DNA of 64,000 nt from Rubrivivax sp. (GTDB lineage: Bacteria; Pseudomonadota; Gammaproteobacteria; Burkholderiales; Burkholderiaceae_C). The DNA lies in contig JADMJD010000079.1 of NCBI GenBank assembly GCA_018780805.1, positions 10,167 through 74,166 on the forward strand. Reading direction: 5' to 3'. A program made the position numbers and the translations under genes. The first letter of the stretch is position 1. Each line of letters opens with the position of its first letter. The notes beneath the pieces are model-generated. The model saw nothing but the letters and a program-made list of their open reading frames with translations. It was not told the DNA's origin and did no database searches. Shown piece by piece: positions 5,523-64,000 of the stretch.

Positions 5523-8500
5523 GGCTGTCCTCCCAGTAGTCGAAGCGGTCGCTGCCCAGGCTGCCAAGGCCAGTGGCCGCCGGCTGTTGTGATGCGCTGC
5601 CCAGCACCCAGCCCTGGGCCAGGCGGCTGGCCAGGCCGAAGGCCTCGACACTCAACCCGGCGTCGATGGCCATCGCGGGGTCGATGGTGGCGCCGGGCAG
5701 CGGGTCGGCCGTCAGCGTGGCCAGGTAGGCGGCGGCGGCGCTGCCGGCCGGCAGGGCGCGGTCGCCATCCAGCGCCGCCAATGCGCTGCGGGCCCGGGTG
5801 TCGCTGTCGCGCAGCTCGGCCAGCGGGCGCAGAGCGTTCAGCCAGGCGGCGGCCGCAGCGGCATCGCCACTGCTCAGGTCGCCACCGCTGGCGGCGCGGG
5901 TGCTGGGGCCCTGGGCCTCGATCTGCTGGTGCAGCACACCGTCTTTCAGCAGGTTGTAGCGGGTGCGGCCATCGGCGGTGGAATCGCGCAGGATCAGGCC
6001 ACCGTCGGCGTCGATGTCCACGCGGTTGGCCTCGACGTCGATGGCGTCCATCGCCACCGACTGGCCGGCGCCCAGCACCGGGCCCAGGCCGCGCATCACC
6101 AGCCAGGCGGCCCGCACGTTGGTGGCGCTGTCCCGGTCGGCGTCGCTGATGCGCCCGCCGCTCACCAGCACCAGGCCGGCGCTGCCCGTGTCCAGCTCGG
6201 CGATGGCCAGGTCGCCGGCGGCGCACAGCGTGAGTTCGTGGTTGCCGGTGGCCAGCAAGGCGCCCGGGGCCATGCTGATCGCACCGCGGCTGGTGAGCAC
6301 CACGCTGGCGTCCACACTGCCGCGGCCGCTGAGCTCGATGCGGCTGCCGGTGGCGTTGAGCTGATCCAGCACCAGGGAAGACAAGGTGGCGGTGTCAATC
6401 ACCAGCGCGCCACTGCTGGCATCGCCCAGCTGCAGGCTGCCAAAACCTTGCAGCGCGGCCAGCGTGCCAGCGGTCAGCACCAGGCCATCGCCCGCAGCAC
6501 CGACGGTGAGGGTGGCACCCGCCGTCGTGGGCGTCAGCAGCACCTGCGCATCGGCGCTGCCGCGCACGCTGCCGTTGAACTGCAAGGCGTCGGCACTGAG
6601 CACCAGATCGCCGCTGGCCAACACCACATCGCCCAGCACGATGCGGCTGGCACCGGTGATGGTGAGGCTGCCGCCGTTCAGCACGATGGGGCCGGTGAGC
6701 GTGACCACACCACTGGCTTCGATGACGAGATTGCCGTTGAGGGTGACCTGGGCCAGCGTGACGTCGGTGGCGCCGTCGATCAGAAGGCCGTCCAGCGGTG
6801 TGGTGGCGCCGATGGCACCGGTGACCACCACGGGCGCGCCGTCGGCGTGCAGCTCCAGCCGGTCGGGTGCACCGCCCGGGTTGCCGTCGATCGCACCGTC
6901 GATGAGGATGGCGCCGTCCCCCGTGCCTTCGCCGGTGCCGGCCCGCACGACAAAGTCGCCCTGGATGCGCAGGTCGCTGTCGATCTGAACCGGGCCTTCC
7001 TGCGTGATGTCGTCGCCGCGCACGTCCAGCACGGCCCCGTCACCGCCGGCTGACAGCTCGATGTGGCCGCTGCCGTGGGCGGTGATGGCGCGGCCGTCAC
7101 TGGGTGTGCTGCCGTCCAGCAGGTCGATGCTGCCGTCCAGCGTGCGCAGGCCGATGCTGCCGTTGCCGCTGGTGGTGATGAGGTCGCTTTGCAGGAAATC
7201 GAGTGCCGCGCCGGCCACACCGTCGCTGCCGACACGGTGCACGCGCACGGCCACGTCGTGCACGCGGATGGCGTCGGCTTCCTGCAGCCAGATGCCGCCA
7301 GCCCCGGCGCGGGCGCTGACGGTGCCGGCCTGCGTTTCCACGCGTGCTGCGCTGCTGCCGATGCCTTGGCCGGCCTGCATCAGCAGGCCTTCGGCCGCCA
7401 CGCGCTGGCCGCTGCTGCCGATGATCCAGCCGGCGGCCACCAGCATCAGGTCGCCCGGTGTCGTGACACGGCCGATCTGGATGTCGGCCGCGGCTTCGAC
7501 CAGGGCATCGCCCAGCGTCGCCAGCAGGCCATCGCTGCCAAAACGCAGGCTGCCACCGGCCGAGAGCACCACCGTGCCGGCCGCATCGCCCGTGCCAACC
7601 AGGCCGTTCAGCTGCAGGTCACCACCGGCGCTGGCGCTCAGGTGGCCGGCTTGTGTCTGGGCGCTGCCGTTGATCTGCAGTGCACCGGCGCTGGCCAGCA
7701 GCAGGTGGCTGCTGCCACGGGCTGAGGCTGAACCATCGAGCGTCAGGCTGCCACCACTGGTGGCGACCAGCGTGCCGGTCGACAAAACCGTGCCGCCGAT
7801 GCGCAGCGAGGACTCGGCCTGCAGCCGCAGCGCACCTGCTGTGTCCAGCGTACCAGCCAGTTCCAGCGTGCTGGCGTTGATGGCGGCATCGCCGGCCACG
7901 GCCACCTCACCGCCCAGCGTCAGGGCCTGTGTGGCGGTCAGCACCAGGCGCCCACCGACTTGCATGTCACCGCCCAGGGCGATGGTGGAGGCGCTGGCCA
8001 GCAGGTCGGCCCCGGCGGCCAGGTGGCCGGTGGCCAGCAGATCACCCAGCGCGGTGAGGTGGAGGTCACCAGCGGCTTGCAGGTCGCCATTCAGCGTCAG
8101 CGTGCTGCCGGTGATGGCCAGGTCGCCGGCCGCCACGAGCGCAGCGTCGATCAGGATGTCGACGCCACTCAGCGTCAGGCTGCCGCCGGCGTTGACCGCG
8201 GCCGCGACCTGCAGCGCACCATCGGCCGCCAGCGCGATGGCGCCCCCGGCCTGGAGAGGTGCGCCGATGTCCAGCGCCGCGCCGCTGAGGCTCAGATCGG
8301 TGCCTGCCGTCACAGCGCCGGTGATGCTGAGCGTGCCGCCGCTGGCGAGCTGCACCGCCCCGTCGGCGCTGGCGCCAGTGACCGTCAGCGCATCGACGTC
8401 ACTCAGCACCAGGGCGCCGCTGCCAGCTGCAGCCTGCAGGCTGCCGGCTTCGGTGCGCAGGCCATCGCCCCAGGCACCGATGCCTGCACCGGCGCTGAGG

Positions 8501-48473: not shown

Positions 48474-50621
48474 ATGGCCGGCCATCTGCTCAGCGACGCC
48501 TGGTACCAGGTGGCCGACGCCCAGGTGGCGCTGCTGCCCACGGTGCAGGCGCAGCCGCAGCGGTTTCGCGGCCGTACCTGGGTGGTGCTGGAAGATCCGT
48601 ATGCACACCGCTTCTTCCGCGTCACACCCCAGGCCTACAGTTTTTTGCGCGCGCTGAACGCCGAAGAGACCGTGGACGCCGTCTGGCAGCGCGTGGCGGC
48701 CGAACAGCCCGACACCGTGCCCACGCAGGACGAGGTGCTGGGCCTGCTGTCGCAGCTGCATTTGTCCAGCCTGCTGTACTTCCGCGCCGCACCGCAGAGC
48801 AGCGCCATCTTCGAGCGCCAGCAGGCCACCCGTCGGCGTGAGCTGATGGGCAAGGCCATGGCCTTCCTGTTCGTGCGCATCCCGCTGTTCAGCCCGGACC
48901 GGGCGCTGAACGCCGTGCAGCCACTGGTCCGCGCCACCACCGGCCGGGCAGCCGGGCTGGTCTGGATGGCGGTGGTGCTGGCCGGCCTGTGGGCCGTGAT
49001 CGGCGAGTGGCCGGCGTTGTCGGCCGCGGGCCAGGGGCTGCTGTCGCTGTCCAACCTGCCGGTGTTGTACGTGGCCATCGCCATCGTCAAGGTGATCCAC
49101 GAGCTGGCGCACGCTTTCGTCTGCAAACGTTATGGCGGCCAGGTACCGGTGTTCGGCATCATGCTGCTGGTGCTGGCGCCGCTGCCGTACACCGATGCCA
49201 CCGCCAGCTGGGGCCTGCGCAGCAAGTGGCAGCGCGCCTACATCGGCGCCGCCGGCATGCTGGCCGAGCTCTTTGTGGCCGCACTTGCCGCCCTGGTCTG
49301 GGTCAACACCGGGGCCGGGCCGGTGAACAGCCTGGCCTTCAACATGATGGTGGTGGGCTCGGTGTCCAGCCTGCTGTTCAACGGCAACCCGCTGCTGCGC
49401 TTTGACGCGTACTACATCCTCTCCGATCTGGCCGAGCTGCCCAACCTGTACCAGAAGGCGCAGGCGCAGTGGCTGCACTGGGGCCGGCGCTTTGTGCTGG
49501 GCCAGGCCGACAGCCAAGGCCCGGCGACCGACGCGAGCGAGCGCAGCTGGTACGGCTTTTACGGCGCCGGCGCGTTTGCCTACCGGCTGCTGGTGACGGC
49601 GACCATCCTGCTGTTTGTCACCGACCAGTGGTTCGCCGTCGGCCTGGTGCTGCTGGTCACCACCGCGCTGGCCATGGTGCTGATGCCCTTGTCCAAGTTC
49701 GGACGTTACCTGCTCGCGCTGCGCCAGGGCCGTGGCCGGGCACTGGCCGGCACGGCCGGCGTGGTGGCGCTGCTGTGGTTGGGCATCGCTGTCTTGCCGC
49801 TGCCGCACGCCGTGCGCCTGCAGGGGGTGTTGCAGGCCCAGGCCAGCAGCCAGCTCTACGTGCAGACCGCCGGCCAGCTGGTGGCGCTGCCGGTGCGCCA
49901 TGGGCAGCGTGTGGCCAAAGGCGAGCTGATCGCCCGCCTGGACAACCCCGACCTGACACATGCGCTGCAGGCCGTGGCGCTGCAGCAGGCCGAGACCGAA
50001 GCGATGCAGCGCCAGGCCCTGCTGGCCACACCGGCCGAGGTGGCGCCGCTGCAGAGCCGGCTCGACGCGCTGCGCGACCGCGAACGCGAGCTGCGGGTGC
50101 TGGCCGCCCAGCTGGAGGTGCGCGCACCGCAGGCCGGCGAGTGGGTGGCGCCGCTGCTGCACGAACGCCAGGGCAACTGGATCGAACGTGGCCAGCCGCT
50201 GGGTGAGCTGGTGGACCGCGGCGCCTTCCGCTTCAGCGCCGTGCTGCCGCAGAGCCAGGCGGCCGAACTCTTCGGCCTGCCCGACGCAGGCGGCGACGTG
50301 CGGCTGATGCACGCGCGCGGCGTCGATCTGCCGGTGGCCCGGCTGCGCCTGGTGCCCTACCAGCGCCAGCGCCTGATGTCGCCGGTGCTGGGTTTTGGCG
50401 GTGGTGGGGATGTGGCGGTGCGGCCCGACGATGCCAGCGGTACGCTGGCCACCGAACCGTTTTTCGAGCTGCAGGCCGAGCTGGCTGACCCAGCGCTGGC
50501 CGGGCTGGTGGCCTACCACGGCCTGTCCGGGGTGCTGCGGGTGCCGGTGCCGGCCCGGCCGCTGTGGGAACGCACCGTCGCGGCGCTGCGCCAGCTGCTG
50601 CAGCAGCGGTACCAGGTGTGA
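48474..50621 (+). CDS. PqqD-like domain / M50 site-2 metalloprotease / MFP fusion protein
   Basis: HELAH zinc motif plus NGNPLLRFD third-ligand motif within a multi-TM core. The N-terminal ~90 aa look like a PqqD/RRE winged helix. The C-terminus has an MFP lipoyl/hairpin (GQLVALPVRHGQRVAKGELIARLDN). Confidence 0.85.
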   Translation: MAGHLLSDAWYQVADAQVALLPTVQAQPQRFRGRTWVVLEDPYAHRFFRVTPQAYSFLRALNAEETVDAVWQRVAAEQPDTVPTQDEVLGLLSQLHLSSLLYFRAAPQSSAIFERQQATRRRELMGKAMAFLFVRIPLFSPDRALNAVQPLVRATTGRAAGLVWMAVVLAGLWAVIGEWPALSAAGQGLLSLSNLPVLYVAIAIVKVIHELAHAFVCKRYGGQVPVFGIMLLVLAPLPYTDATASWGLRSKWQRAYIGAAGMLAELFVAALAALVWVNTGAGPVNSLAFNMMVVGSVSSLLFNGNPLLRFDAYYILSDLAELPNLYQKAQAQWLHWGRRFVLGQADSQGPATDASERSWYGFYGAGAFAYRLLVTATILLFVTDQWFAVGLVLLVTTALAMVLMPLSKFGRYLLALRQGRGRALAGTAGVVALLWLGIAVLPLPHAVRLQGVLQAQASSQLYVQTAGQLVALPVRHGQRVAKGELIARLDNPDLTHALQAVALQQAETEAMQRQALLATPAEVAPLQSRLDALRDRERELRVLAAQLEVRAPQAGEWVAPLLHERQGNWIERGQPLGELVDRGAFRFSAVLPQSQAAELFGLPDAGGDVRLMHARGVDLPVARLRLVPYQRQRLMSPVLGFGGGGDVAVRPDDASGTLATEPFFELQAELADPALAGLVAYHGLSGVLRVPVPARPLWERTVAALRQLLQQRYQV

Positions 50622-52411
50622 TGGGGCTGCACCGCCACCGGGCCAGGCGCCGCTGGTTGGCGAGCCAGGCCACGGCCCGGGCGGCATTGGCACTGGAACG
50701 CCAGCAGCCGGCCGACCTGGCCACGGCACACCAGGCCGCGCGCCGGGCCGCGGTGCGCCAGGAGCCGGCCCTGCAGCAGCTGGCCCAGCTGCAGGGCCTG
50801 GCCACGGTGCTGGCGGCGGTGGAGAGCCATCAAGGTCGGGCCGTGCCGGCCCCGGTGGTGGACACCGCGCTGGCCCTGCTGCGCCACGCCGCCGTCGAGC
50901 TGCCCGCGCTGAAGGACCGCCGCCTGGCCACTGCCCTGGCTGCTGCCACGGCCGCGCTGGCCGGCGAGCCGGTGCACGTGGTGACCACCAGCGATGAAGA
51001 CGCGGCGGCCACGGCCGCGGCCATGCGCCCGGTGTTCGACGCCTGTGGCCTGAGTGCCGCCGCGTTGTCGCTGGACATGGCACCGGCCGCGCTGGCCGCC
51101 GGCTACCGCGCTGACGTGGTGCTGGCCGGTGTGCGCCGGCTGGCTGCCGACCTGGCGCGCGACGAGCATCTGCAGTCGCGCCTGGGCGCCGATGGCCCGG
51201 TGCCGCTGCTCACCCGCGGCGCCGCCTGGGCTTTGCTGGAGCCGCTGGACCGTGTGCTGGCCGATGAAGCCCTGGGCCCGGTGCAGCTGTCGGTGGCCGA
51301 CGACCCCAGCGGCTTCGGCGCCGCGCTGGCGCTGGCCCGCCGCCTGGCCGACACCCTGGTGACCGGTGTGCACCACGACGGCCTGGACCTGCTGGACGCC
51401 GGCCGTGAGCTGCTGGACACCCACACCACCGCCTGGCCACCGCTGTGGCGGGCCGCCGCCAGGCGCGACGACCTGGTGCGCCAGGCGCTGTACGTGCGCG
51501 ACGGCCTGCAGCGTGGGCGCGACTACGAGCTCGCGCCCGGCAACCTGCTGTGGCTGGACGAAGGCCTGTCCGAGCGCCTGCCCGAGCGTGGCTTCAGCCC
51601 GGGCCTGAGCCAGGCCCTGCAACTGCGGCTGGGCGTGCCGATGGCGCCCATCACCCGCACCCTGGGGCGCACCAGCGTGCCGGCCTTCTGCCAGCGCTAC
51701 CGCCACCTGGCAGGCACCGCACCGGCGCTGGCCGGACTGGACGCCGAACTCTGGCAGGCCCATGGCCTGACGCTGCACGTGGCCGCGCCCGCCCCGCCGC
51801 TGCCCTGCAGCACCCGCGCCCTGCCGGACCGCGCCGCCTGGGAGCAGGCGCTGGCCGATGCCGCCGGCTCGGGCGCCGACAGCCTGGCCCGCCTGGTGGT
51901 GCTGCGCCGCGCCGCCGACCTGGCCAGCCTGCAGGCCCTGGTGCAGCACCCGCGTGCCGCCTGGGCACTGGAGGCCGTGGGCCCGCAGACGGCGTTGCAG
52001 GCGCTGGGGTTTGGCGGCCCGGACGCACCGGCGGGCCTGCGTGTGGTGTTTGCCGAGCCGCCCGACACCGCCCGCGCGGAGCTCGCCTTCCTGCGCCGCG
52101 CCGCCGACGCCAGCAGCGGCACGTTCGAAGCCGTGCGCCTGGTGCATGCCCACAGCCGCTGGCTGGCCGACCGCCTGCCGCTGCCGGCAGCGGCCTTGCG
52201 CCAGCTGTGCCGCCTGTGGCCCGGCGCCGCCCCGCGGCTGCTGCCCGCCCTGGTGGCCTGGGCACAGCGCTGCACGGCACGCCAGACCCGCGCCCACCGC
52301 CTGGCGCTGCCCCAACGTGAACGCCAGCTGCAGCAGCAACTCTCCTTCACCGCCGCCCGGTCGCCAGCCCCAACGCCCGGCCCCCAGCCGGCCCCCGGAA
52401 CATCCCCTTGA
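50621..52411 (+). CDS. SecA_DEAD-like protein with degenerate ATPase motifs (596 aa)
   Basis: Colinear with SecA by eye: GEPVHVVTTSD, YRADVVLA, DRVLADEALGPVQLS, RDYEL...LDE...FSPGLSQALQ...TRTLGRTSV..FCQRYRHLAG. TGATG overlap with the upstream stop (alternative GTG at 50618). Confidence 0.72.
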   Translation: MGLHRHRARRRWLASQATARAALALERQQPADLATAHQAARRAAVRQEPALQQLAQLQGLATVLAAVESHQGRAVPAPVVDTALALLRHAAVELPALKDRRLATALAAATAALAGEPVHVVTTSDEDAAATAAAMRPVFDACGLSAAALSLDMAPAALAAGYRADVVLAGVRRLAADLARDEHLQSRLGADGPVPLLTRGAAWALLEPLDRVLADEALGPVQLSVADDPSGFGAALALARRLADTLVTGVHHDGLDLLDAGRELLDTHTTAWPPLWRAAARRDDLVRQALYVRDGLQRGRDYELAPGNLLWLDEGLSERLPERGFSPGLSQALQLRLGVPMAPITRTLGRTSVPAFCQRYRHLAGTAPALAGLDAELWQAHGLTLHVAAPAPPLPCSTRALPDRAAWEQALADAAGSGADSLARLVVLRRAADLASLQALVQHPRAAWALEAVGPQTALQALGFGGPDAPAGLRVVFAEPPDTARAELAFLRRAADASSGTFEAVRLVHAHSRWLADRLPLPAAALRQLCRLWPGAAPRLLPALVAWAQRCTARQTRAHRLALPQRERQLQQQLSFTAARSPAPTPGPQPAPGTSP

Positions 52412-52442
52412 CGCCCCTGGCGCCGCACCGCAGGATCAAGCC

Positions 52443-53882
52443 ATGAACGCACGTCAACGCCTCTTCTTTTGCCCTGCCGGGCTGTCATTCGCCGCGGTGG
52501 CTGCCGCCGGCCTGCTGGCGGCCTGCGGCGGAGGCGGCGGTGGTTCGTCGCCCAGCGGCCCGCTGACGATCACCACCACGCCGGTGCTGGCCGGCAGTGC
52601 GCTGGTGTATGCCATCACCCTGCCCAACGGCTACAACGACGCGTCCATCGTCACCTACCGCACGGCCGATGTGGCCAGCGGCCTGGGTTACGCCACCGGT
52701 GGCCTGGCCTGCGGCGCCGGGGTGGACTACATCGCCGTGCCCGCGGGCAGCGTCACCATCACACGCAGCGGCACGGTGAACATCACCACCTGCCCCAACG
52801 CCAGCTTCGAACCGAACGAACAGCTGGTGCTGGTGGTCGATTGGCAAGGCGGCAGCACACGCAACCCGGGGCTCATCGTCAACACCGTGGCCGGTGGCCT
52901 GAATGACACCGGCAGCAGCCAGTGCCTGGACGCCAGCGGCGCCCTGGTGGCCTGCACCGCCGCCACCGCACTGGCCGGCCAGGACGGCAGCACCGGCCGC
53001 GACACCACCGCCGTGAGCAACGGCGGCAGCGACGGCCGCCTGGGTTTTGCGTTCACGGCCAGCGGCGGCTGCGTGACCGACCATGTCACCGGCCTGGTCT
53101 GGGACAGCAGCGCAGAAAGCGCCGGCACTGTGGCGACGGCCGAAGCCAACGTGGCCGCCGCCAACACCGCGGCGCGCTGCGGCGCCAGCGACTGGCGGCT
53201 GCCCACGACTGCCGAACTGCTGTCGCTGGTGGACGCCGGCCTGAGCAGCGGCGCCCGCATCGACCCCACGTTTGCCGACACGCCCGCCAACGGCTTCTGG
53301 ACCGCCGAGCCCTATGCCGGCGATACGCGCGCGTCGTGGCTGGTGGATTTCAGTTCCGGCGCGGTGGCCTTCGACACCGCCACCAACCCGCTGGCCAAGG
53401 CCTTCTCCAGCCGCCTGGTGCGCGGCACGGCCGACACACCGGCCTGCGATGCCGACGTCGCCACGCTGGTCACCAACAGCAACGCCACCGTCACCGACAG
53501 CCGCCTGGGCCTGATGTGGCAGCAGTGCGCCGAAGGTTTGTCGGGCGCCGGTTGTGCCACCGGCACGGCCACGGTCTACGGCACCTATGCCGCGGCGTTG
53601 TCACGCGCCGCGGCCGTCAACGCCGACCCGGCCGGTGCCGGCCGTGGCCACAGCGATTGGCGGGTGCCCAACCGCAACGAACTGGCGTCGCTGGTGAACC
53701 GCCGCTGCGAAGCACCGGCCATCCAGCGCACGCCCTTCCCAGGCACACCGTCGGCCAGTTTCTGGACCGCCACGCCGGCCTTTGCCGGGTTCGCCTGGTA
53801 CGTGGATTTCACCGACGGCAGCATCGGCCCCGGTGGCACGACGGGCGACCGTGTGCTGCGCCTGGTGCGCGGCGGGCAGTGA
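52443..53882 (+). CDS. Lipoprotein with Calx-beta-like domain and two Lcl C-terminal (DUF1566) domains (479 aa)
   Basis: Lipobox LLAAC followed by GGGGGGSS; GLNDTG motif; two VTDxxTGLxW...DWRLP/VPxxxELxSLV...FW domains ending LVRG. Start at ATG 52443. Confidence 0.85.
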   Translation: MNARQRLFFCPAGLSFAAVAAAGLLAACGGGGGGSSPSGPLTITTTPVLAGSALVYAITLPNGYNDASIVTYRTADVASGLGYATGGLACGAGVDYIAVPAGSVTITRSGTVNITTCPNASFEPNEQLVLVVDWQGGSTRNPGLIVNTVAGGLNDTGSSQCLDASGALVACTAATALAGQDGSTGRDTTAVSNGGSDGRLGFAFTASGGCVTDHVTGLVWDSSAESAGTVATAEANVAAANTAARCGASDWRLPTTAELLSLVDAGLSSGARIDPTFADTPANGFWTAEPYAGDTRASWLVDFSSGAVAFDTATNPLAKAFSSRLVRGTADTPACDADVATLVTNSNATVTDSRLGLMWQQCAEGLSGAGCATGTATVYGTYAAALSRAAAVNADPAGAGRGHSDWRVPNRNELASLVNRRCEAPAIQRTPFPGTPSASFWTATPAFAGFAWYVDFTDGSIGPGGTTGDRVLRLVRGGQ

Positions 53883-54920: not shown

Positions 54921-56033
54921 TCAGGCGCTGAGCAGCTTGCCGGTGCGCACCAGGGTGCGGCCGGCGATCTTGGCCACGCGGGTGCCGGGCACGGCCCAGC
55001 GTGTGTTGATGCGGGCGTAGAGCACACCGGCCGACTGGGCGCGCAGCGGCAGGCGCTCGCCGGTGTCGACATCGACGATGTCGGCCACGGTCTGGCCGAC
55101 CTCGATGTGTTCGCCGGGCTGCGCGTGGAACACCACCACGCCGGGACGGGGCGCGGTGACGGGCTCCGACGCCGCCAGCAGCGTGGGCTCGCAGCGGGCC
55201 ACGGGCAACGGCGCCGGCGCACCGGCCACGATGCCACGCCGGCGCAGGAATTCGATGAGTGCCGCCGCATCCGCTTCGGCCAGCGCATGGTCGGTGTCGG
55301 CCTCGCCACGCAGCTCGACCGTGGTGCTGAAACAGGGCAGCGGCATCGGGTGCGCGGGGAAACGTTTCTGCAGCGCCGGCCCGGGCCGGCTGCAGGCTTC
55401 GTCGAACGGTGAATCGCCCGATTCTTCGGCCAGCAGCACAGCCTGCGCGCCCAGCAGCGCACCCAGTTCATGCGCCAGGTCGGCCTGCAGCGTGTGCGCG
55501 TACAGGTGCAGCACGGCCTCGCTGTCGCAGTGCAGGTCCAGCACCACGTCGGCGTCGATGGCCAGCTGCAGCAGCTGGCGCTTCAGGTCCTGCACCGGGG
55601 TCTGCACCGTCAAGGCCGCTGCCGCGTCCCGCAGTGCAGCACGTGCCAGCCGCACGTTGGTGCGGGCATCGTCGCCCAGGCGGCCGGCCAGCGCGGTGGC
55701 CGCGGCCTCGCTCAGATCGGCGTAGCCGCGGTTGAAGTTCAGGCCGTCGCGCAGGTCGAAGCGGCCCTGGTCGCGCGCCAGCACCTGCTGCGCCAAGCCG
55801 ATTGGGTTGGCGTAGGGCACCAGGCGCACCTCGCCGATCAACTGGCCCGCGGCCTCCAGCACCGTGAGCTGCCGGCGCAGCGCTTGCGCCACCAGCAGCG
55901 CCGGCACCTCGTCGGCGTGCAGCGCGGCCTGGATCGTGGCCACGGGGCCGCCGGAGGTGCCGAAGCGCAGCACGGTCAGCGTGTGCTGCAGGCCGGGCGA
56001 GGCGCTGAACAGCGGCAAGGTCTGGGGTGTCAT
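54921..56033 (-). CDS. Succinylglutamate desuccinylase/aspartoacylase family (M14) protein
   Basis: QAALHADE zinc motif, ANPIG, NFNR, VLDLH and a C-terminal lipoyl-like domain (PVTAPRPGVV...GEHIEVGQTVADI). Confidence 0.82.
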   Translation of the reverse strand: MTPQTLPLFSASPGLQHTLTVLRFGTSGGPVATIQAALHADEVPALLVAQALRRQLTVLEAAGQLIGEVRLVPYANPIGLAQQVLARDQGRFDLRDGLNFNRGYADLSEAAATALAGRLGDDARTNVRLARAALRDAAAALTVQTPVQDLKRQLLQLAIDADVVLDLHCDSEAVLHLYAHTLQADLAHELGALLGAQAVLLAEESGDSPFDEACSRPGPALQKRFPAHPMPLPCFSTTVELRGEADTDHALAEADAAALIEFLRRRGIVAGAPAPLPVARCEPTLLAASEPVTAPRPGVVVFHAQPGEHIEVGQTVADIVDVDTGERLPLRAQSAGVLYARINTRWAVPGTRVAKIAGRTLVRTGKLLSA

Positions 56034-56107: not shown

Positions 56108-56950
56108 ATGTGTGCCAGCAAGGTGCCCGAGGGCCGGGAGCGGGGATGGATCATCCCCATCGGCGGGGCCGAAGAAAAAGAGAACTCGCCGCAGATCCTG
56201 CGCCGCTTCGTGCAGCTGGCGGGTGGCAACGACGCCGACATCGTCGTCATCCCCACCGCCAGCCAGATGCGCGACACCGGCGCACGCTACGAACGCATCT
56301 TCGGCGAGCTGGGCGCCGGCCGTGTGAGCGCGCTGGATTTCGACACCCGGCGCGATTGCGACGAAACCAGCCGCATCAGCCGCCTGCAGCAGGCCACGGG
56401 GGTGTTTTTCACTGGCGGCAACCAGCTGCGGCTGTCCACGCTGCTGGGCGGCACGCCGGTGGCCAAGGCCCTCCGTGCGCTCAATGCGGCGGGTGTGCCG
56501 GTGGCCGGCACCAGCGCCGGGGCGGCTTTCATCAGCGAACACATGATCGCGTTTGGTGACGAAGGCAGCACGCCGATCGCCGGCTCGGTGCGCCTGGCCG
56601 CGGGCCTGGGGCTGACGAACCGCTTCATCATCGACCAGCACTTCCGCCAGCGCGACCGGCTCGGCCGGCTGCTCACCGCGCTGGCCTACAACCCGTTCGC
56701 CGTGGGCATCGGGCTGGACGAAGACACCGCCGCCTTCATCGCGCCCGACAACACGGTGCACGTGGAAGGTTCGGGCGCGATCACCGTGGTCGACGCGGCC
56801 GAGGTGCAGTTTTCGTCGATGGACAGCGTCAGCGAAGGCCGGCCCGTGTGCCTGCTGGGCGTGAAGCTGCACATCCTCACGCAAGGTGCCACCTTCAACC
56901 TGCACACGCGGCAGGCGGATGCGGGCAGCCTGGTGCGGCCCAAGGCCTGA
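56108..56950 (+). CDS. cphB: Cyanophycinase (peptidase S51)
   Basis: IIPIGGAEEK, FTGGNQLRL, GTSAGA nucleophile motif, DQHFRQRDRLGRL; directly upstream of cphA. Confidence 0.92.
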   Translation: MCASKVPEGRERGWIIPIGGAEEKENSPQILRRFVQLAGGNDADIVVIPTASQMRDTGARYERIFGELGAGRVSALDFDTRRDCDETSRISRLQQATGVFFTGGNQLRLSTLLGGTPVAKALRALNAAGVPVAGTSAGAAFISEHMIAFGDEGSTPIAGSVRLAAGLGLTNRFIIDQHFRQRDRLGRLLTALAYNPFAVGIGLDEDTAAFIAPDNTVHVEGSGAITVVDAAEVQFSSMDSVSEGRPVCLLGVKLHILTQGATFNLHTRQADAGSLVRPKA

Positions 56951-56991
56951 AACCTGCTTCGTTCATCCCTTCTGATCCCGGAGCCTGCTGC

Positions 56992-59805
56992 ATGCGCATC
57001 CTCGAACGCAACGTCTACGTCGGCCCGTCGCTGTACGCGCATTTCCCGGTCATCCGGCTGCTGCTGGACCTGGGACCGCTGGAGGGCTGGCCCACGGGCA
57101 AACTGGGTGCGGCGTTTGTCGACGGCCTGGTGGCGGCGCTGCCGACGCTGCAGGAGCATGGTTGTTCGTACCGCGAGCCGGGCGGTTTCATCCGCCGCAT
57201 GCGGGGAGATCCACAAGACCCCGACGGCACCTGGTTGGGCCATGTCTTCGAACACGTGGCCATCGAGCTGCAGAACATCGCCGGTGAAGACGTCACCTTC
57301 GGCAAGACCCGCAGCGTGGACGGCCAGCCCGGTGTCTACACCGTGGTCTACGAATACGCGCAGCGAGACGAAGGTGTGGAGGCCGGTGAACTGGCGATCC
57401 GGCTGCTGTGTTCGCTGCTGCCGCCCGAGCTGCAGCCTGAAGGCGTGGTGCCTGCCGACTGGGCCTGGCCCGAGGCGCGGCTGGACTTCATCCGCTACGC
57501 GCAGCGGCGTGCGCTGGGCCCGTCGACGGCCTCGCTGGTCAAGGCCGCCGAAGAACGCAACATCCCCTGGCTGCGGCTGAACGAACAAAGCCTGATCCAG
57601 CTGGGCCACGGCAAATTCCAGCAGCGCATCCAGGCCACCGTCACCGGCCGCACCAGCTACATCGCGGTGGAGCTGGCGCAGGACAAGGAAGAAACCAACA
57701 AGATCCTGGCCAACCAGGGCCTGCCGGTGCCGCGGCAAGAGCTGGTGCGCAGCGCCGACCGCGCCGTGCGCGCGGCCGAACGCCTGGGTTTCCCGGTGGT
57801 CACCAAGCCCTACAACGGCAACCATGGGCGTGGCATCAGCATCGAGCTGAAAACCGCCGACGAGGTGCGCGCCGGTTTTGCCGCCGCCGCCGAGCACAGC
57901 AGCAGCGTGATCGTCGAGACCTACCTCAGCGGCGCCGACCACCGGCTGCTGGTGGTGAACGGCGAGTTGATCGCGGCCACACGCCGCACGCCGGGGCGGG
58001 TGATCGGCGACGGCCAGCATTCGGTGCGTGAACTCGTGGACATCGTCAACCAGGACCCGCGCCGCGGCGTGGGCCACGAAAAGGTGATGACCCGCATCGA
58101 ACTCGATGCGCAGGCCGACACGATGCTGGCGCGCCAGGGCATGACCCCCGACTCGGTACCGGCCGAAGGCCAGGTCGTCGAACTGCGCAGCACCGCCAAC
58201 CTCTCCACCGGCGGCACCGCCACCGACGTGACCGACGTCATCCACCCCGACAACCGCGAGATGGCCGTGCGCGCCGTCACCGCCATCGGCCTGGACGTGG
58301 GCGGCGTGGACTTCCTCTGCCCCGACATCACCGAGAGCTACAAGACGGTGGGCGGTGGCATCTGCGAGGTGAACGCGGCACCGGGTTTTCGCATGCACGT
58401 GGCCCCCAGCGAAGGCACCCCACGCGACGCCGCCGGCCCGGTGATCGACATGCTGTTCCCGGCCGGTGTGGCCAGCCGCGTGCCGATTGCCGCCATCACC
58501 GGCACCAACGGCAAGACCACCACCAGCCGCATGCTGGCGCACATCACCAAGATGGCGGGTTACACCCCGGGCCTGACCACCACCGATGGCGTCTACATCG
58601 ACGGCCAGCGCACCGTGGAGGGCGACATGACCGGCCCCGTGGCCACGCGCATGGTGCTGGCCGACCCGGCCATCGACATGGCGGTGCTGGAGATCGCGCG
58701 TGGCGGCCTGCTGCGCGCCGGCATGGGCGTGCCCTTCGTCAACGTCGGCGCGGTGCTCAACGTGCAGGCCGACCACCTGGGCATGAAAGGCATCGACACC
58801 CTCGAACAACTGGCCGAGGTCAAACGCATCATCGTCGAGGTGGCGCGCGATTGCGCGGTGCTGAACGCCGACGACGAACACGTGATCCGCATGTCGGCCC
58901 ACACCGAGGCCAAACACCTGTGTTACGTGACGCTGAACCCGCAACACGCCGTAGTGCGCGAGCACATCCGTGCCGGTGGCCGGGCGTGTGCGCTGGAGGC
59001 GGGTGTGAACGGCCAGATGATCACGCTGTACGACAAGGGCCGGCACATCCCGCTGATGTGGACGCACCTGATCCCGGCCACACTGGAAGGCCGTGCGATG
59101 CACAACGTGCAGAACGCGATGTTCGCCGCCGCACTCGCCTTCAGCCTGGACATCAAGCTCGACGCCATCCGCCAGGGGCTGCGCACCTTCGACAGCACCT
59201 TCTTCCAGGCCCCGGGCCGCATGAACGTCTACGACGAACACCCGTTCAAGGTGATCTTCGACTACGCGCACAACGCCCATGCCGTGGGCGTGATGGCCGA
59301 CCTGGCGCAGCGGCTGGACGTGCGCGGCCGGCGCATCGTGGTGGTGGCCGGCCCGGGCGACCGGCGTAATGAGGACATCGTCGCCATCGCCGAGGCGGTG
59401 GCCGGCCGCTTTGACCACTACATCTGCCGGCGCGACGACGGCCTGCGCGGGCGTGCGCCCGACGAGGTGCCGCAGATGATCGCCGCCGTGCTGCGCCAGC
59501 GTGGCGTGCCTGACAGCGCGATCACCATCATCCCGGACGAGCAGGAAGCGATCGACGCCGCCTTGCGCATGGGCCAGCCGGGTGACCTGCTGCTGGTGTT
59601 TGCCGATGCGCTGACACGGTCGTGGAAGCAGGTCACGAAGTTCAAACCCGATGGGGCGGCCGTGGCCAGCGCAGCGCCTGCAGCGGCCGCGCCTGCGCCG
59701 GCCGACGACGAGCCGGCCACCGTGGCCCTGGGCGCCGACCTGGAGGCCGCCGGCTTCGTGCGCGACGAGCGCGGGCTGCGGTTCGTGGGTGAAGCCGCTG
59801 ACTGA
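56992..59805 (+). CDS. cphA: Cyanophycin synthetase (937 aa)
   Basis: N domain GTWLGHVFEHVAIELQ; ATP-grasp (KPYNGNHGRGIS, ANLSTGGTA, EVNAAPGFRMH); Mur domain (GTNGKTTT, DYAHN). Start at ATG 56992 (MRILERNVYVGPSLY). Confidence 0.95.
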   Translation: MRILERNVYVGPSLYAHFPVIRLLLDLGPLEGWPTGKLGAAFVDGLVAALPTLQEHGCSYREPGGFIRRMRGDPQDPDGTWLGHVFEHVAIELQNIAGEDVTFGKTRSVDGQPGVYTVVYEYAQRDEGVEAGELAIRLLCSLLPPELQPEGVVPADWAWPEARLDFIRYAQRRALGPSTASLVKAAEERNIPWLRLNEQSLIQLGHGKFQQRIQATVTGRTSYIAVELAQDKEETNKILANQGLPVPRQELVRSADRAVRAAERLGFPVVTKPYNGNHGRGISIELKTADEVRAGFAAAAEHSSSVIVETYLSGADHRLLVVNGELIAATRRTPGRVIGDGQHSVRELVDIVNQDPRRGVGHEKVMTRIELDAQADTMLARQGMTPDSVPAEGQVVELRSTANLSTGGTATDVTDVIHPDNREMAVRAVTAIGLDVGGVDFLCPDITESYKTVGGGICEVNAAPGFRMHVAPSEGTPRDAAGPVIDMLFPAGVASRVPIAAITGTNGKTTTSRMLAHITKMAGYTPGLTTTDGVYIDGQRTVEGDMTGPVATRMVLADPAIDMAVLEIARGGLLRAGMGVPFVNVGAVLNVQADHLGMKGIDTLEQLAEVKRIIVEVARDCAVLNADDEHVIRMSAHTEAKHLCYVTLNPQHAVVREHIRAGGRACALEAGVNGQMITLYDKGRHIPLMWTHLIPATLEGRAMHNVQNAMFAAALAFSLDIKLDAIRQGLRTFDSTFFQAPGRMNVYDEHPFKVIFDYAHNAHAVGVMADLAQRLDVRGRRIVVVAGPGDRRNEDIVAIAEAVAGRFDHYICRRDDGLRGRAPDEVPQMIAAVLRQRGVPDSAITIIPDEQEAIDAALRMGQPGDLLLVFADALTRSWKQVTKFKPDGAAVASAAPAAAAPAPADDEPATVALGADLEAAGFVRDERGLRFVGEAAD

Positions 59806-61570
59806 GACCCTGTCGACGCCACTGGGCCAGGAACCCGAGCCGAACCACGGCTTCGAGGATTCGCGCCGGCTCACCGGTGCCAACCGCTGGTTCCCGGGCC
59901 CGGCCGTGGTGCTGACGCCGCTGGGCGTCGCATCGACCGATGCCGCCGCGTTGGCCCGCTGGGCGGCACGGGTCGAGACCCTGGCCGCGGCCCTGGGCTG
60001 GGCCGCGCCCACGCCGGTGGTGCACCACCACGCCGGCGGCACGCTGCTGGTGTTTGCAGCGCCGGCGTCCACGCTGTTCACCGCCACCGAGCTGAACGAA
60101 TGGGCCTGGGAGCGCAGCGCGGCCGAGGCCGGCGAAACCGGCTTCGACATCGCCCAGCCTTTTGGCGACGACGTGGCCGTGGCCACGCTGGGCGCGCGTG
60201 CCACCGCCGAGCACCGGCCGGACGTGCAGGCGCTGCTGGACGCCGCGGCCGCGCAAGGCCTGCCCGCGCTGCTGGACGATCACAGCTTGTCGCTGGGCGG
60301 AGGCGTCAGCAGCCAGACCTGGGCCTTGACCACCCTGCCAGACCCGGCCACGGTGCCCTGGGACCGGCTACACGACGTACCCACGGCCCTGGTCACCGGC
60401 AGCAACGGCAAGACCACCACCGTGCGGCTGCTGGCCGCCATCGCGGCGCAGGCCGGGTTCACCGCCGGTTATTCCTGCACCGAAGGCCTGTTCGTCGGCG
60501 GCCAGCCGGTGGACCGCGGCGACTGGGCCGGCCCGGCCGGTGCCCGCGCCGTGCTGCGCCATCCGGCCGTCACCGCCGCAGTGCTGGAAACGGCGCGTGG
60601 CGGCCTGCTGCGGCGCGGCCTGGCGGTGGCCCGCGCCGACGTGGCCGTGGTCACCAACATCAGCCCCGACCACCTGGGTGAATACGGCGTGCACAGCGCT
60701 GCCGACCTGGCCGAGGTGAAGCTCATCGTCGCCCACGCGGTGGCGGGTGGTGGGAAGGGCGGCGGCGCGCTGGTGTTGAACGCTGACGATGTGGTGCTGA
60801 TGGCGGCGGTGGCTCGGCGCCTGCCCCAGGTGCCCACCGCGCTCTTTGCCCAGGACCACGAGCACCCGGCCCTGCAGGCGCTGCGCGCCGCAGGAGGCAG
60901 CAGCTGTGGGGTGGCCAACGGCCAGCTGCTGCTGGCGCATGCCGGCCGCACACACGACCTGGGCCCGGTGGCCGGGATGCCGATCACACTCGGCGGCGCC
61001 GCGCGCCACAACGTCGACAACGCCGCCGCTGCTGCCCTGGCCGCGGCGCTGCTGGGCTGGCCGGCGGCGGCCATCACCACCACACTGCAGCAGTTCGGCC
61101 AAGCACCGAGTGACAACCCCGGCCGGCTGGAACGTTGGACGCACCGCGGTGCCACCGTGCTGTTGGACTACGCCCACAACCCCGAGGGCCTGGCGCAGCT
61201 GCTGACCGTGGCGCGTGCGCTGGGCGGCCAGCGCCTGGGCCTGCTGCTGGGCCAGGCCGGCAACCGGGACGACGCCGCCATCACCGACCTGGCCCGAACC
61301 GCCGCCGCCTTTGCGCCCGAGCAGGTGGTGGTGAAAGAGCTGCCGGGCATGCTGCGCGGGCGGCTGCCCGGCACGGTGCCGGCGCTGATCGTTCAGGCGC
61401 TGGTGGACGCCGGCTTGCCACCCGGGCGCTGCCAGCGCATCGACGACGAATCCGCCGCCGCCCAGGCCCTGCTGGCCTGGGCGCCGCCCGGGGATGTGCT
61501 GGTGCTGCCGGTGCACACGGCCGCAGTCCGCGACACGCTGGTGGGCGTGCTCAGGGCTTCTGCAGCCTGA
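59789..61570 (+). CDS. CphA paralogue / Mur-ligase family protein lacking the ATP-grasp domain (~593 aa)
   Basis: GSNGKTTT, VLETARGGLLRRG, NISPDHLG, PGRLE, DYAHNPEG are colinear with the CphA C-terminal half. GTG at 59789 overlaps the cphA stop; exact start uncertain. Confidence 0.8.
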   Translation: MKPLTETLSTPLGQEPEPNHGFEDSRRLTGANRWFPGPAVVLTPLGVASTDAAALARWAARVETLAAALGWAAPTPVVHHHAGGTLLVFAAPASTLFTATELNEWAWERSAAEAGETGFDIAQPFGDDVAVATLGARATAEHRPDVQALLDAAAAQGLPALLDDHSLSLGGGVSSQTWALTTLPDPATVPWDRLHDVPTALVTGSNGKTTTVRLLAAIAAQAGFTAGYSCTEGLFVGGQPVDRGDWAGPAGARAVLRHPAVTAAVLETARGGLLRRGLAVARADVAVVTNISPDHLGEYGVHSAADLAEVKLIVAHAVAGGGKGGGALVLNADDVVLMAAVARRLPQVPTALFAQDHEHPALQALRAAGGSSCGVANGQLLLAHAGRTHDLGPVAGMPITLGGAARHNVDNAAAAALAAALLGWPAAAITTTLQQFGQAPSDNPGRLERWTHRGATVLLDYAHNPEGLAQLLTVARALGGQRLGLLLGQAGNRDDAAITDLARTAAAFAPEQVVVKELPGMLRGRLPGTVPALIVQALVDAGLPPGRCQRIDDESAAAQALLAWAPPGDVLVLPVHTAAVRDTLVGVLRASAA

Positions 61571-62744
61571 GCAGCAAGCCGGCAATGGGCCGGCCTTGTT
61601 CGTGGCGCAGCACCGTGGACTGCACCGCTTCCACCGTGAAGCCGGCGGCGCTGGCCAGCCGGCGCAGCGCGGTTTCGCCATGCCGGTAACGCAGTTGCGC
61701 GCACAGCTGCACGGCGTCGGTGTCATCGGCCGCTTCGACGCTGAACACCACGGGGCCACCCGGCCACAACACACGCCACAGGCCGGCGAACACCGGCGCC
61801 AGATCGCCGATGTAGATGAAGACATCGGCCGCGAGCGCGAGGTCAAAACGTTCCGGCGTCTGCTGCAGCCACTGCACCGCCTCGGCTTCGTGCAGCGCCT
61901 GGTACAGGCCGCGCGCACGCGCCTGCACCAGCATGCGCGGCGACAGGTCCACGCCGGTCAGCCGCTGCACACGCCCCTGCAGCGGCGGCGCACACAGGCC
62001 GGTGCCGCAGCCCAGGTCCAGCGCGTGGGTGTAGACGCGGCCCGGCGGCAGCAGGTCCACCACGCCCTGGTGCGCGCTGTAACCCAGGCCTTGCACCAGG
62101 TGCTGGTCGAAGCCGTCGGCATACCCGTCGAACAACGCCTGCACATAGGCGGGTGGCGCCTGGCCGTCGGCGGGCGCACCGGTGACCGAGGCCAGGAACC
62201 AGCGGTTCAGCGTCGGGTCACCGCCGTGCGCCAGGGCCTGCTCGAAGCAGTGCCGCGCATCGGCCAGCCGGCCGGCCTCGCGCAGCAGGCTGCCACGTTG
62301 GGTCCAGGCCGCGGCGTGCGTGGCATCCAGCGCCAACGCCGTGTCGAACGCCGACAAGGCTTCGTCGGCCCGCTCCAGCCGGCCCAGCAGCAGGCCGCGG
62401 CGGTGCTGCAGTTCGGCATCGACCGGGCGTTGGTGCAACAGGCGCTCCAGCACCGGCAAGGCCTGGGCCGGTTGGTCCAGCGCGGTCAGCGCGCGCGCCA
62501 GCAAGGCCAGCGCTTCAGGGTGCCCGGGTTCGGCGGCGAGCAGCGGCGCCAGGTCGTCGGGCACGGGGCCGGGGCGGCCAAGCGCCAGCCGCGTGGCGGC
62601 CAGATTGATGACCACCGAGGCGCGGCCCGGCACCAGCGCCTGTGCCTGCAGGAAACTCTGCTCGGCCTCGGCCAGCTGGCCGGCTTCGTGTTGCTGCACA
62701 CCGGCCATGAAAGCGGCGCGTGCCTGTTCAAAGCGGTGATCCAT
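61551..62744 (-). CDS. TPR-repeat class I SAM-dependent methyltransferase
   Basis: N-terminal TPR helices, YVQALFDGYADGFDQHLV, LDLGCGTG motif I, GVDLSPRML, AADVFIYIGDL. Confidence 0.87.
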   Translation of the reverse strand: MDHRFEQARAAFMAGVQQHEAGQLAEAEQSFLQAQALVPGRASVVINLAATRLALGRPGPVPDDLAPLLAAEPGHPEALALLARALTALDQPAQALPVLERLLHQRPVDAELQHRRGLLLGRLERADEALSAFDTALALDATHAAAWTQRGSLLREAGRLADARHCFEQALAHGGDPTLNRWFLASVTGAPADGQAPPAYVQALFDGYADGFDQHLVQGLGYSAHQGVVDLLPPGRVYTHALDLGCGTGLCAPPLQGRVQRLTGVDLSPRMLVQARARGLYQALHEAEAVQWLQQTPERFDLALAADVFIYIGDLAPVFAGLWRVLWPGGPVVFSVEAADDTDAVQLCAQLRYRHGETALRRLASAAGFTVEAVQSTVLRHEQGRPIAGLLLRLQKP

Positions 62745-62770: not shown

Positions 62771-63847
62771 TCAGGCCACGCGCTGCAGCCGCTGCGTTGT
62801 GCCCAGCACGCCACCGAACAGGTCCTTGGGGTTGGTGAGCTCTGGCACCAGGTCGATCGTGCGCCGCAGGTCGCCATGTTCCTGCAGCAGCTGGTGCAGC
62901 AGGCGCAGCGCGGAAAAATCCTCCAGCGCAAAACCCACCGAGTCGAAGACCGTCACCTCATCGGCATCGGCGCGGCCAATGGACTGGCCGCTGACCACGT
63001 CGGCAAACTCCGTGACGCCGAAGTTGGCCGGCAGCTGCTGGATCTCACCTTCGATGCGCGACTGCGGCGCGAACTCCACCACCACCCGCGTGCCGGGCCG
63101 GGTGAGGATGTCCACGTGCAGCTCGGTTTTGCCCGGGCAATCGCCGCCGACGGCGTTCAGGTGCATGCCGGGTTTCACCATCGACGGCGTCAAGATCACC
63201 GCGTTGCGCTTGTCTGCCGTGACGGTGGTGACGATGTGCGCACACATCACCGCGTCCGCGGTGGATGTGGCCACATGCAGCTGCAGATCGCGCAGCTCCG
63301 GCATCGCGCGCAGGTTGCGCAGCAGCTTGGCGGTGGCGGCGGGGTCGGTGTCGTACAGCCGCAGCGCGCGCACGCCCAGCAGCCGGTGGAAGGCGATGGC
63401 CTGGAACTCGCTCTGCGCGCCGTTGCCGATGATGGCCATCGTGCTGCCGCCCGGCCGCGCCAGCCAGCGCGCGGCCAGCGCCGACATCGCCGCGGTGCGC
63501 AGCGCGGTGGTGATGGTCAGCTCCGACAGCAGCAGCGGGTAACCCGTCTGCACATCGGCCAGCACGCCGAAGGCGGTGACCGTCAGCAGACCGGCCGCGG
63601 TGTTCTGCGGGTGGCCGTTGACGTACTTGAAGGCGTACTGCTGGCCGTCGCTGGTGGGCATCAGCTCGATCACGCCGACGGTGGAATGGCTGGCCACGCG
63701 CGCGCTTTTTTCGAACTGTTCCCAGCGCCGGTAGTCAGCTTCGATTTCGCCGGCCAGGCGTTCGATGAAGGCGCCGATGCCGACGCGCTGCAGCAGGCGC
63801 TGGATGTCGCTGATGCCGATGAAGGGCACGCCGATGAAAGGGACCAT
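62771..63847 (-). CDS. ocd: Ornithine cyclodeaminase (358 aa)
   Basis: ELMPTSDG..YAFKYVNGHP, TTALRTAA, IGNGAQSEFQ, NAVGGDCPGKTEL, FDSVGFALEDFSALR. Start at ATG 63847 with GGAG 7 nt upstream, rather than the track's 63973. Confidence 0.92.
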   Translation of the reverse strand: MVPFIGVPFIGISDIQRLLQRVGIGAFIERLAGEIEADYRRWEQFEKSARVASHSTVGVIELMPTSDGQQYAFKYVNGHPQNTAAGLLTVTAFGVLADVQTGYPLLLSELTITTALRTAAMSALAARWLARPGGSTMAIIGNGAQSEFQAIAFHRLLGVRALRLYDTDPAATAKLLRNLRAMPELRDLQLHVATSTADAVMCAHIVTTVTADKRNAVILTPSMVKPGMHLNAVGGDCPGKTELHVDILTRPGTRVVVEFAPQSRIEGEIQQLPANFGVTEFADVVSGQSIGRADADEVTVFDSVGFALEDFSALRLLHQLLQEHGDLRRTIDLVPELTNPKDLFGGVLGTTQRLQRVA

Positions 63848-64000
63848 GGAGAGACTCCGTTTTGCGGGAATCTCCATTGTTCCGGGCGGTCTGCTCAGCC
63901 GGAAGGCGGCGAACTGGCCAGATCGCTGCAGGCGGCTGGCACTTTGCCAGCCACCGCTGCCGGAACGCTCCATATCGGGCGCTCAGTGCAGCGCCGACAG

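Follow-up and report, generated by a model that had tools for sequence, protein, structure and literature searches.

A cyanophycin synthetase paralogue without an ATP-grasp domain, encoded directly behind cphA1 in Rubrivivax: a possible trans-acting side-chain ligase

The locus studied here raises the question of what a cyanophycin synthetase paralogue that lacks the ATP-grasp domain does directly behind the gene of a complete cyanophycin synthetase. Cyanophycin is a nitrogen-storage polymer of industrial interest; its synthesis is described as the work of CphA1 alone, with CphA2 recycling dipeptides. The window, that is, the whole stretch of 64,000 nucleotides from Rubrivivax sp. (contig JADMJD010000079.1, positions 10,167 to 74,166), has a G+C content of ~72% and contains cphB, cphA1 and the paralogue, here called X, in this order:

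56108–56950, plus strand: cphB, cyanophycinase (Pfam Peptidase_S51, E 1.4e-23; TIGR02069, 256 bits, cut-off 126.6)
56992–59805, plus strand: cphA1, full-length cyanophycin synthetase 1, 937 residues, N, G and M domains (TIGR02068, Pfam)
59789–61570, plus strand: X, paralogue of CphA1 that lacks the G domain, 593 residues, GTG start

X appears to consist of a diverged N domain, a stub of ~50 residues of the core of the ATP-grasp (G) domain and a complete Mur (M) domain. We give a probability of roughly 55% to the reading that X is an ATP-dependent ligase which acts in trans on the side chains of cyanophycin, possibly with an amino-acid specificity unlike that of CphA1.

Pfam detects only Mur_ligase_M and Mur_ligase_C in X, and none of its ATP-grasp families at E values up to 0.1. 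The CphA1 model TIGR02068 gives 320.5 bits, below its cut-off of 850, and covers profile positions 477–848 only. The neighbouring CphA1 reaches 1097 bits over positions 1–861; it contains the Cyanophycin_syn N domain, several ATP-grasp families and the Mur M and C domains, its Cys...HxxEH motif is present and the catalytic motifs of its M domain are intact. BLASTP aligns the two proteins in the M domain only (36% identity), without a significant match in the N region. The top PDB sequence matches of X are all CphA1. A preliminary description of this DNA, made from the sequence alone, had proposed a gene coupled to cphA whose product keeps the Mur domain and lacks the ATP-grasp domain, and Pfam, TIGR02068 and the structural superposition agree with it. 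The short spacer that it had noted in place of the ATP-grasp domain is also found: ~25 residues (171–196) separate GGG from VPTALVTGSNGKTT in X, compared with ~290 (206 to 497) in the CphA1 of the window. It had overlooked, however, an apparent, diverged N domain of CphA type and the stub of the G core; rather than a bare Mur domain, X would be an ‘N+M’ enzyme with the following parts:

59846–60214, plus strand: X residues ~20–142, probable diverged CphA-type N domain (alignment, structure match)
60215–60373, plus strand: X residues ~143–195, remnant of the start of the G core (a helix and three short strands) and linker to the M domain (hhalign, model)
60374–61102, plus strand: X residues 196–438, Mcore, with the P-loop GSNGKTT (K208, T209), T231, E267, D294-H295 and K311 (Pfam, 202–419)
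61103–61567, plus strand: X residues 439–593, Mlid (Mur C-terminal domain), with the DYAHN, GNR and RGR motifs (Pfam Mur_ligase_C, 445–573)

The structural models place these parts along a CphA1 fold. The AlphaFold (AF2) model of X, built on 61 family members, has a predicted local distance difference test (pLDDT) score of 94.4 and a predicted template modelling (pTM) score of 0.93, and superposes on CphA1 along the whole chain with a gap at the position of the G domain. Foldseek gives template modelling (TM) scores, by query, of 0.78–0.81 against CphA1. With VIA-align, residues 20–593 match CphA1 chain positions 1–872 (546–553 aligned) at Z scores of 34–38.7, as against 25.8 at most for MurE. 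The own X model of the ESM Atlas matches CphA1 clusters of four phyla at TM scores of 0.83–0.85. A separate model of the N region (pLDDT 91), searched without Foldseek against 48,161 representative chains, has just two matches with a Z score of at least 8, to CphA2 (7TA5, 9.6) and to the CphA1 of A. baylyi (7LGM, 8.3). In both chains the match extends to residues 470–484, the end of the G domain.

At the level of profiles, hhalign aligns X residues 12–167 collinearly with CphA1 residues 5–214 (E 1.1e-3, with a probability of only 21%), and PF18921, the Pfam model of the CphA N domain, has no match in X. The remnant of the G core, which hhalign pairs with CphA1 ~170–214, holds the AAAQGLPALLDD..GGG segment, and D163, G170 and G172 are invariant in it. 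A match of 20 residues between AAAQGLPALLDD.. of X and AAEERNIPWLRLN.. of CphA had been reported in the preliminary description. Taken alone it lacks significance and is missing from the BLASTP output; the correspondence is nevertheless real, though weak at sequence level, because it lies inside the collinear profile alignment and the structural superposition on CphA1. Invariant positions of the N domain are S25-R26-R27-L28-x-G30, W58, W71, T100, E104 and A106. In CphA1 the N domain bears the peptidase motif Cys...HxxEH (PMC9262961), and ~80% of CphA1 sequences carry the primer-generating site Cx19HxxEH. HxxEH is found in none of 84 X N regions, and all 57 partner CphA1 sequences have the motif.

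The M domains of 109 X and 67 CphA1 sequences were aligned, and 58 positions are conserved and identical across both groups. These include the P-loop (G204, N206, G207, K208, T209, T210), T231, E267, D294-H295, K311, N331, D334, D460-H463-N464 (DYAHN), R493 and R523-G524-R525. Some are CphA-type residues which are kept in X and absent from MurE (R213, G248-P249, R253, A269-R270-G271-G272, R275 and R523-G-R525). Residues of X match the ATP and Mg residues K499, T500, T522 and E558 of TeCphA1 (PMC9427784), and D294/H295 match D585/H586 of SuCphA1, the pair whose mutation abolishes the activity of the M domain (PMC9262961).

Seven positions are conserved within each group and differ between them (X/CphA1): L328/A, L337/V, N443/A, A462/G, G467/A, P510/D and H576/D. 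Five of the X residues (N443, A462, G467, P510 and H576) are in Mlid. H576 lies eight residues past the shared Gly-Asp; the sampled proteobacterial CphA1 have Asp at this position, and SuCphA1 has Glu one position earlier. In the sequence alignment H576 falls on the GKGHE loop of MurE. This loop contacts the incoming amino acid of MurE and helps to bind it. H576 and the other differences in Mlid may thus be a lead towards altered amino-acid specificity, rather than a result.

X belongs to a family with a fixed layout. A word-indexed search gave 120 clusters (548–639 residues, at least 59% identity), all with just the two Mur Pfam domains, and the source names of these relatives are ‘cyanophycin synthetase’ or ‘UDP-N-acetylmuramyl tripeptide synthase’. 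With the profile of the N region, 826 representatives of clusters at 50% identity are recovered, 604 of them at E values of 1e-10 or lower. Among the 150 representatives listed, the domain is N-terminal in nearly all, full-length members have 553–662 residues and two are longer (713 and 757). X fits this N'+M family of ~560–660 residues, in which SRRLTG...NEWAW...DD motifs are followed directly by a CphA-type M domain. NCBIfam and Pfam hold no model for the family or for its N domain. The family ranges over Burkholderiales, Lysobacterales, Acidobacteriota and Actinomycetota. The Actinomycetota relatives (ESM Atlas clusters) include a fused variant without the G domain, a form of ~727 residues with TPR_5 in 98% of its members.

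In species genomes, 324 loci encode a relative, and the locus comparisons use the best 80 of them. These 80 come from Rubrivivax and other Burkholderiales, Lysobacterales (Rhodanobacter, Dokdonella, Arenimonas, Dyella, Novilysobacter) and Holophagaceae/Geothrix. The co-occurrence with cphB and cphA that the preliminary description had put forward as a check is seen throughout: cphA1 lies directly 5' of X in all 78 loci with upstream DNA, and cphB precedes cphA1 wherever the sequence reaches. The order cphB-cphA1-X is found in six of six loci of the genus of the window, in six of six divergent Acidobacteriota loci (with X at ~40% identity) and also in G171, a distant genome of the Pseudomonadota. 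Among 201 Pseudomonadota genomes sampled, seven have an above-cut-off CphA1: two with X, four with a cphA/cphA' tandem and one with a solo gene.

Several observations concern single lineages or loci. The cphB-cphA1-X module is common to Burkholderiales, Lysobacterales and Holophagaceae of the Acidobacteriota (L009–L088, compared with 56108–61570 of the window). In the genus of the window some genomes have the X module, and one (G014) has the classic tandem instead. In one long-read metagenome-assembled genome (L033, ~6736–6968) the cphA1 before X is broken up, with its match split in two and an open frame that stops after 605 residues, probably owing to a frameshift or an assembly error.

The M domains were also placed in a tree (quick IQ-TREE search, MurE as outgroup, no cyanobacterial CphA1). 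X forms a single clade with a support of 93 in the Shimodaira–Hasegawa-like approximate likelihood ratio test (SH-aLRT), sister to the clade of all sampled CphA1 M domains (93). By this tree the M domains of X and of CphA1 are old sister groups. Since X forms a clade of its own and is not nested in that of its neighbour, the idea that it arose from the adjacent cphA1 by a recent duplication was rejected. Loss and gain of the G domain are both compatible with this tree.

The two genes differ in their rates. Across phyla, partner CphA1 sequences are 74–87% identical to the CphA1 of the window, and X sequences are 45–65% identical over the same genomes. Against the nearest relative, X has a ratio of non-synonymous to synonymous substitution rates (dN/dS) of 0.32, and CphA1 one of 0.084. 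X is under purifying selection, looser than that on CphA1. The high identity of CphA1 across phyla, together with the common module, suggests horizontal transfer of the whole cphB-cphA1-X operon.

The junction between cphA1 and X points to coupled translation. The open reading frame of X spans 59651–61570, and the only in-frame starts 5' of the conserved region are ATG 59651 and GTG 59789. GTG 59789 is the likely start, because homologues of 585–600 residues align over 100% of the 593-residue form. It overlaps the cphA1 stop codon (TGA 59803–59805) by 17 nt, exactly as had been described beforehand.

At 65 of 81 related junctions an NTG in the frame of X overlaps the TGA of cphA1 (CTGA in 49, TTGA in 11, ATGA in 3 and GTGA in 2); the window differs, with its other frame and GTG start. 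In 25 CTGA loci the stretch from the preceding stop in the X frame to the invariant SRRL motif ~nine codons downstream is free of ATG, GTG and TTG, and in several loci an X-frame stop stands directly 5' of the CTG which overlaps the cphA1 stop. Junctions of these kinds can be seen at L013 (~6975–7010), L030, L052, L055, L071 and L073. The simplest reading is that X in the CTGA loci without other starts probably begins at the near-cognate CTG by termination-reinitiation, which would couple its synthesis to the translation of cphA1 at a low ratio. A CphA1–X fusion by frameshifting, considered for the loci without a start codon, was rejected as a general explanation: an X-frame stop right before the CTG leaves no room for it. 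Gene callers will misplace the start of X in such CTG loci.

The CphA1 encoded before X has a tail of its own:

59644–59802, plus strand: C-terminal tail of CphA1 (residues ~885–937), a variable Ala/Pro-rich linker and an end motif

In an alignment of 57 CphA1 sequences which precede X, the tail is ~55 residues long and ends in (V/I)RDERG(V/L/I)..(R)E..D. The exceptions are the apparently broken copy of L033 and a looser form in L096. The motif is absent from all ten classic or solo CphA1 examined. The tail may be a docking peptide for X or, equally, a mere marker of that CphA1 clade.

The accessory side-chain ligase, or hetero-oligomeric partner of CphA, that had been proposed before would fit the catalytic residues, the CphA-specific residues, the synteny and the coupling. 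The architecture of X, its two sets of conserved residues, the conserved locus, the coupled junction and the age of the family are observed here; what X accepts, which amino acid it attaches and whether it touches CphA1 are inferred. The trans ligation of side chains appears most likely because X keeps the parts of CphA1 that hold the polymer and add the side chain, with their residues intact. The domains and active sites of CphA1 are able to act in trans (PMC9262961). X would be a stand-alone ‘N+M’ half of a cyanophycin synthetase, made from one transcript with CphB and CphA1 and with its translation linked to the 3' end of cphA1. Between its N-like domain and Mcore it would hold a chain of cyanophycin or poly-Asp, spend ATP to phosphorylate the side-chain carboxylate of an Asp residue and join an amino acid to that carboxylate; this would be the reaction of the CphA1 M domain, carried out in trans. 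X is probably not a plain duplicate of the Arg ligase, because the M domain of the partner CphA1 is already intact. It might add a different residue, or serve the chain ends and positions which CphA1 leaves bare, and in this way tune the composition or the completeness of the polymer. A more specific version, which we put forward only tentatively, is a two-enzyme system in which X, made in low, fixed amounts by termination-reinitiation (often at CTG), docks on the CphA1 tail and adds a residue other than arginine, so that an undescribed variant of cyanophycin is stored.

Several results weigh against trans ligation with a changed specificity. The similarity of the N domain shows in structure and in a marginal profile alignment only (hhalign, E 1.1e-3), and a HMMER profile of the X N domain searched against PDB sequences gave no CphA, only a chance match at E 0.1. 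The argument on specificity consists of the sequence alignment of one loop and of the role of MurE residues in it. The partner CphA1 holds all of its own M-domain motifs, which leaves the need for X unexplained. X also evolves about four times faster than CphA1 by dN/dS and branch lengths, and a regulator or scaffold could look alike.

Such a regulator is one of two alternatives which we consider unlikely, to a similar degree. X might be mainly a non-catalytic or regulatory subunit that binds CphA1, perhaps through the tail, or the granules, and controls synthesis, chain length or granule formation. The strict adjacency to cphA1, the translational coupling and the looser constraint on X would suit this role, as would the oligomer contacts that Mcore makes in CphA1 (PMC9427784) and the tail motif, seen whenever X follows and absent from the ten other CphA1; the tail correlation, however, perhaps reflects just one CphA1 clade. 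Hard to reconcile with a protein without catalysis is the invariance of all ATP, Mg and catalytic residues of the M domain over the 109 X sequences from several phyla. That intact active site is equally expected of the other alternative, an active ligase on a small acceptor, which could, for instance, join Asp and Arg into β-Asp-Arg or short primers, or rejoin the products of CphB or IadA. The operon of X also encodes enzymes of degradation (CphB, together with IadA or a CphZ-like protein), and CphA1 requires primers of at least (β-Asp-Arg)-Asp (PMC9262961). An extra supply of primers seems unnecessary, however, where all 57 partner CphA1 have the primer-making Cys...HxxEH site; moreover, an N-type domain packed on Mcore suggests binding of a polymer, and the M site of CphA1 requires a chain that ends in a bare Asp (PMC9427784).

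Two further explanations carry little weight. An ordinary or alternative peptidoglycan ligase (MurE- or Mpl-like), next to cphA by chance, might be read from the two Mur domains that are all Pfam detects in X and from the frequent name ‘UDP-N-acetylmuramyl tripeptide synthase’ among its relatives. It is very improbable, as the MurE and Mpl models stay far below their cut-offs (the best, MurE, at 103 against 476 bits) while the CphA model gives 320 bits, and as the best PDB matches are all CphA1. Pfam finds no Mur N-terminal UDP-binding domain, the N region of X matching the CphA N domain by structure, and in every locus checked X is linked to cphA1 and not to cell-wall genes. The idea of a decaying remnant of a duplicated cphA, for which the shorter length and faster evolution of X might speak, is effectively refuted by the open frame, the 826 clusters at 50% identity, the full-length members of 553–662 residues among those listed, the invariant catalytic residues, the dN/dS of 0.32 and the old sister clade in the M-domain tree.

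The module is flanked in the window by two further features:

54921–56033, minus strand: gene of the AstE/AspA family (M14-like), divergent and upstream of cphB (Pfam PF24827 AstE_AspA_cat, E 3.8e-10)
61578–61594, plus strand: terminator-like GC hairpin, 8 nt past the stop codon of X (consensus scan)

The NCBIfam scan gave no match for the product of the divergent gene. Genes annotated as AstE/AspA in cphA1 clusters turned out to encode isoaspartyl dipeptidases (PMC10206079), and we regard this one as a candidate CphZ-like hydrolase of cyanophycin dipeptides, a role that we infer. Among the loci compared, an AstE/AspA-type gene is kept beside the module only in the nearest relative (L009). The dipeptidase slot varies by lineage: the window and L009 have the divergent AstE/AspA gene, and most Lysobacterales and Holophagales loci have iadA upstream on the strand of cphB. 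This isoaspartyl dipeptidase gene (TIGR01975, 392 bits) stands 5' of cphB in ~40 loci (e.g. L032:1826–3094).

The number of hairpins over the region is not above that of shuffled sequences (4 vs 2.3 ± 1.6), and only the position of the hairpin behind X is suggestive. No conserved gene was found 3' of X among the related loci, and the downstream genes of the window are convergent and unrelated. The first (61551–62744, minus strand) encodes a protein with TPR and a class I methyltransferase, and its 3' end overlaps that of X by ~20 nt. The next (62771–63973, minus strand) encodes an ornithine cyclodeaminase (NF005762, 524 bits) of Arg/Orn catabolism, whose place beside X is not conserved elsewhere. 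Further upstream, long overlapping open reading frames are seen in high-GC DNA: 50564–52411 (plus strand), with a SecA DEAD-like domain, and 51858–53882 (plus strand), with two Lcl C-terminal domains.

Searches of full-text literature with few subscription journals brought up no functional work on CphA paralogues that lack the G domain. The name ‘cphA3’ belongs to a β-lactamase, and ‘cyanophycin ligase-like proteins’ appear only in the supplementary tree of one paper (PMC3646047). As far as can be told, the cphB-cphA1-X operon, strict across Burkholderiales, Lysobacterales and Holophagales, the NTGA/CTG coupling, the CphA1 tail motif and the positions which differ between X and CphA1 are new. 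A third widespread and apparently catalytic CphA-type enzyme, tied to cphA1 in several phyla, would mean an unrecognised step of the pathway. Should X add another side chain or complete chains, the composition and solubility with which the polymer naturally varies would be explained, and X would be a ready-made tool for tailored cyanophycins. The labels under which the family is filed, both of them wrong, distort counts of cphA in metagenomes.

One of the known systems closest to X is CphA1 (TIGR02068; PDB 7LG5, 7LGJ, 7LGQ, 7WAE, 7LGM, 7LGN). The two share the catalytic residues, many of the CphA-specific residues and the operon, and in the model of X, too, an N-like domain is packed on Mcore and Mlid. 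X differs in its lack of a G domain beyond the stub of ~50 residues, in its length (~590 vs 870–940 residues), in an N domain which is beyond the reach of PF18921 and without Cys...HxxEH, in a score below the TIGR02068 cut-off and in its Mlid substitutions (e.g. His576). MurE and the other Mur ligases (PF08245, PF02875) share with X the fold and the ATP-dependent acyl-phosphate chemistry of the two C-terminal domains; X has no UDP-binding N domain, has the CphA-type substrate loops (ETARGG, RGR) and is found outside the cell-wall cluster.

The tandem cphA/cphA' of Betaproteobacteria resembles the X locus in its two adjacent CphA paralogues with an apparent division of labour, and it is found in the same taxonomic order, and even the same genus, as the organism of the window. 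Unlike X, both proteins keep the G domain, and none is of X type. Tandem loci were seen among the relatives (L089–L094 and L098–L101; relatives G014, G026, G028, G030, G033, G038, G067, G079 and G162). CphA' (~740–800 residues, N+G+Mcore) keeps HxxEH and GNHGRG and has no M-domain P-loop, DH motif or Mlid; its partner, full-length with a full M domain, is without Cys...HxxEH, and its G domain reads GNQGKG where CphA' has GNHGRG. Such complementary degeneration looks like a split of the G and M activities between two proteins. CphA2 (PDB 7TA5), a derivative of CphA1, has like X one catalytic activity fewer than CphA1 and keeps the N domain, as X appears to do. The preliminary description had named it as the opposite configuration, in agreement with PMC10273328: the G domain of CphA2 is active and its M domain is truncated and inactive, and X, the mirror image of CphA2, has an intact M domain and no G domain.

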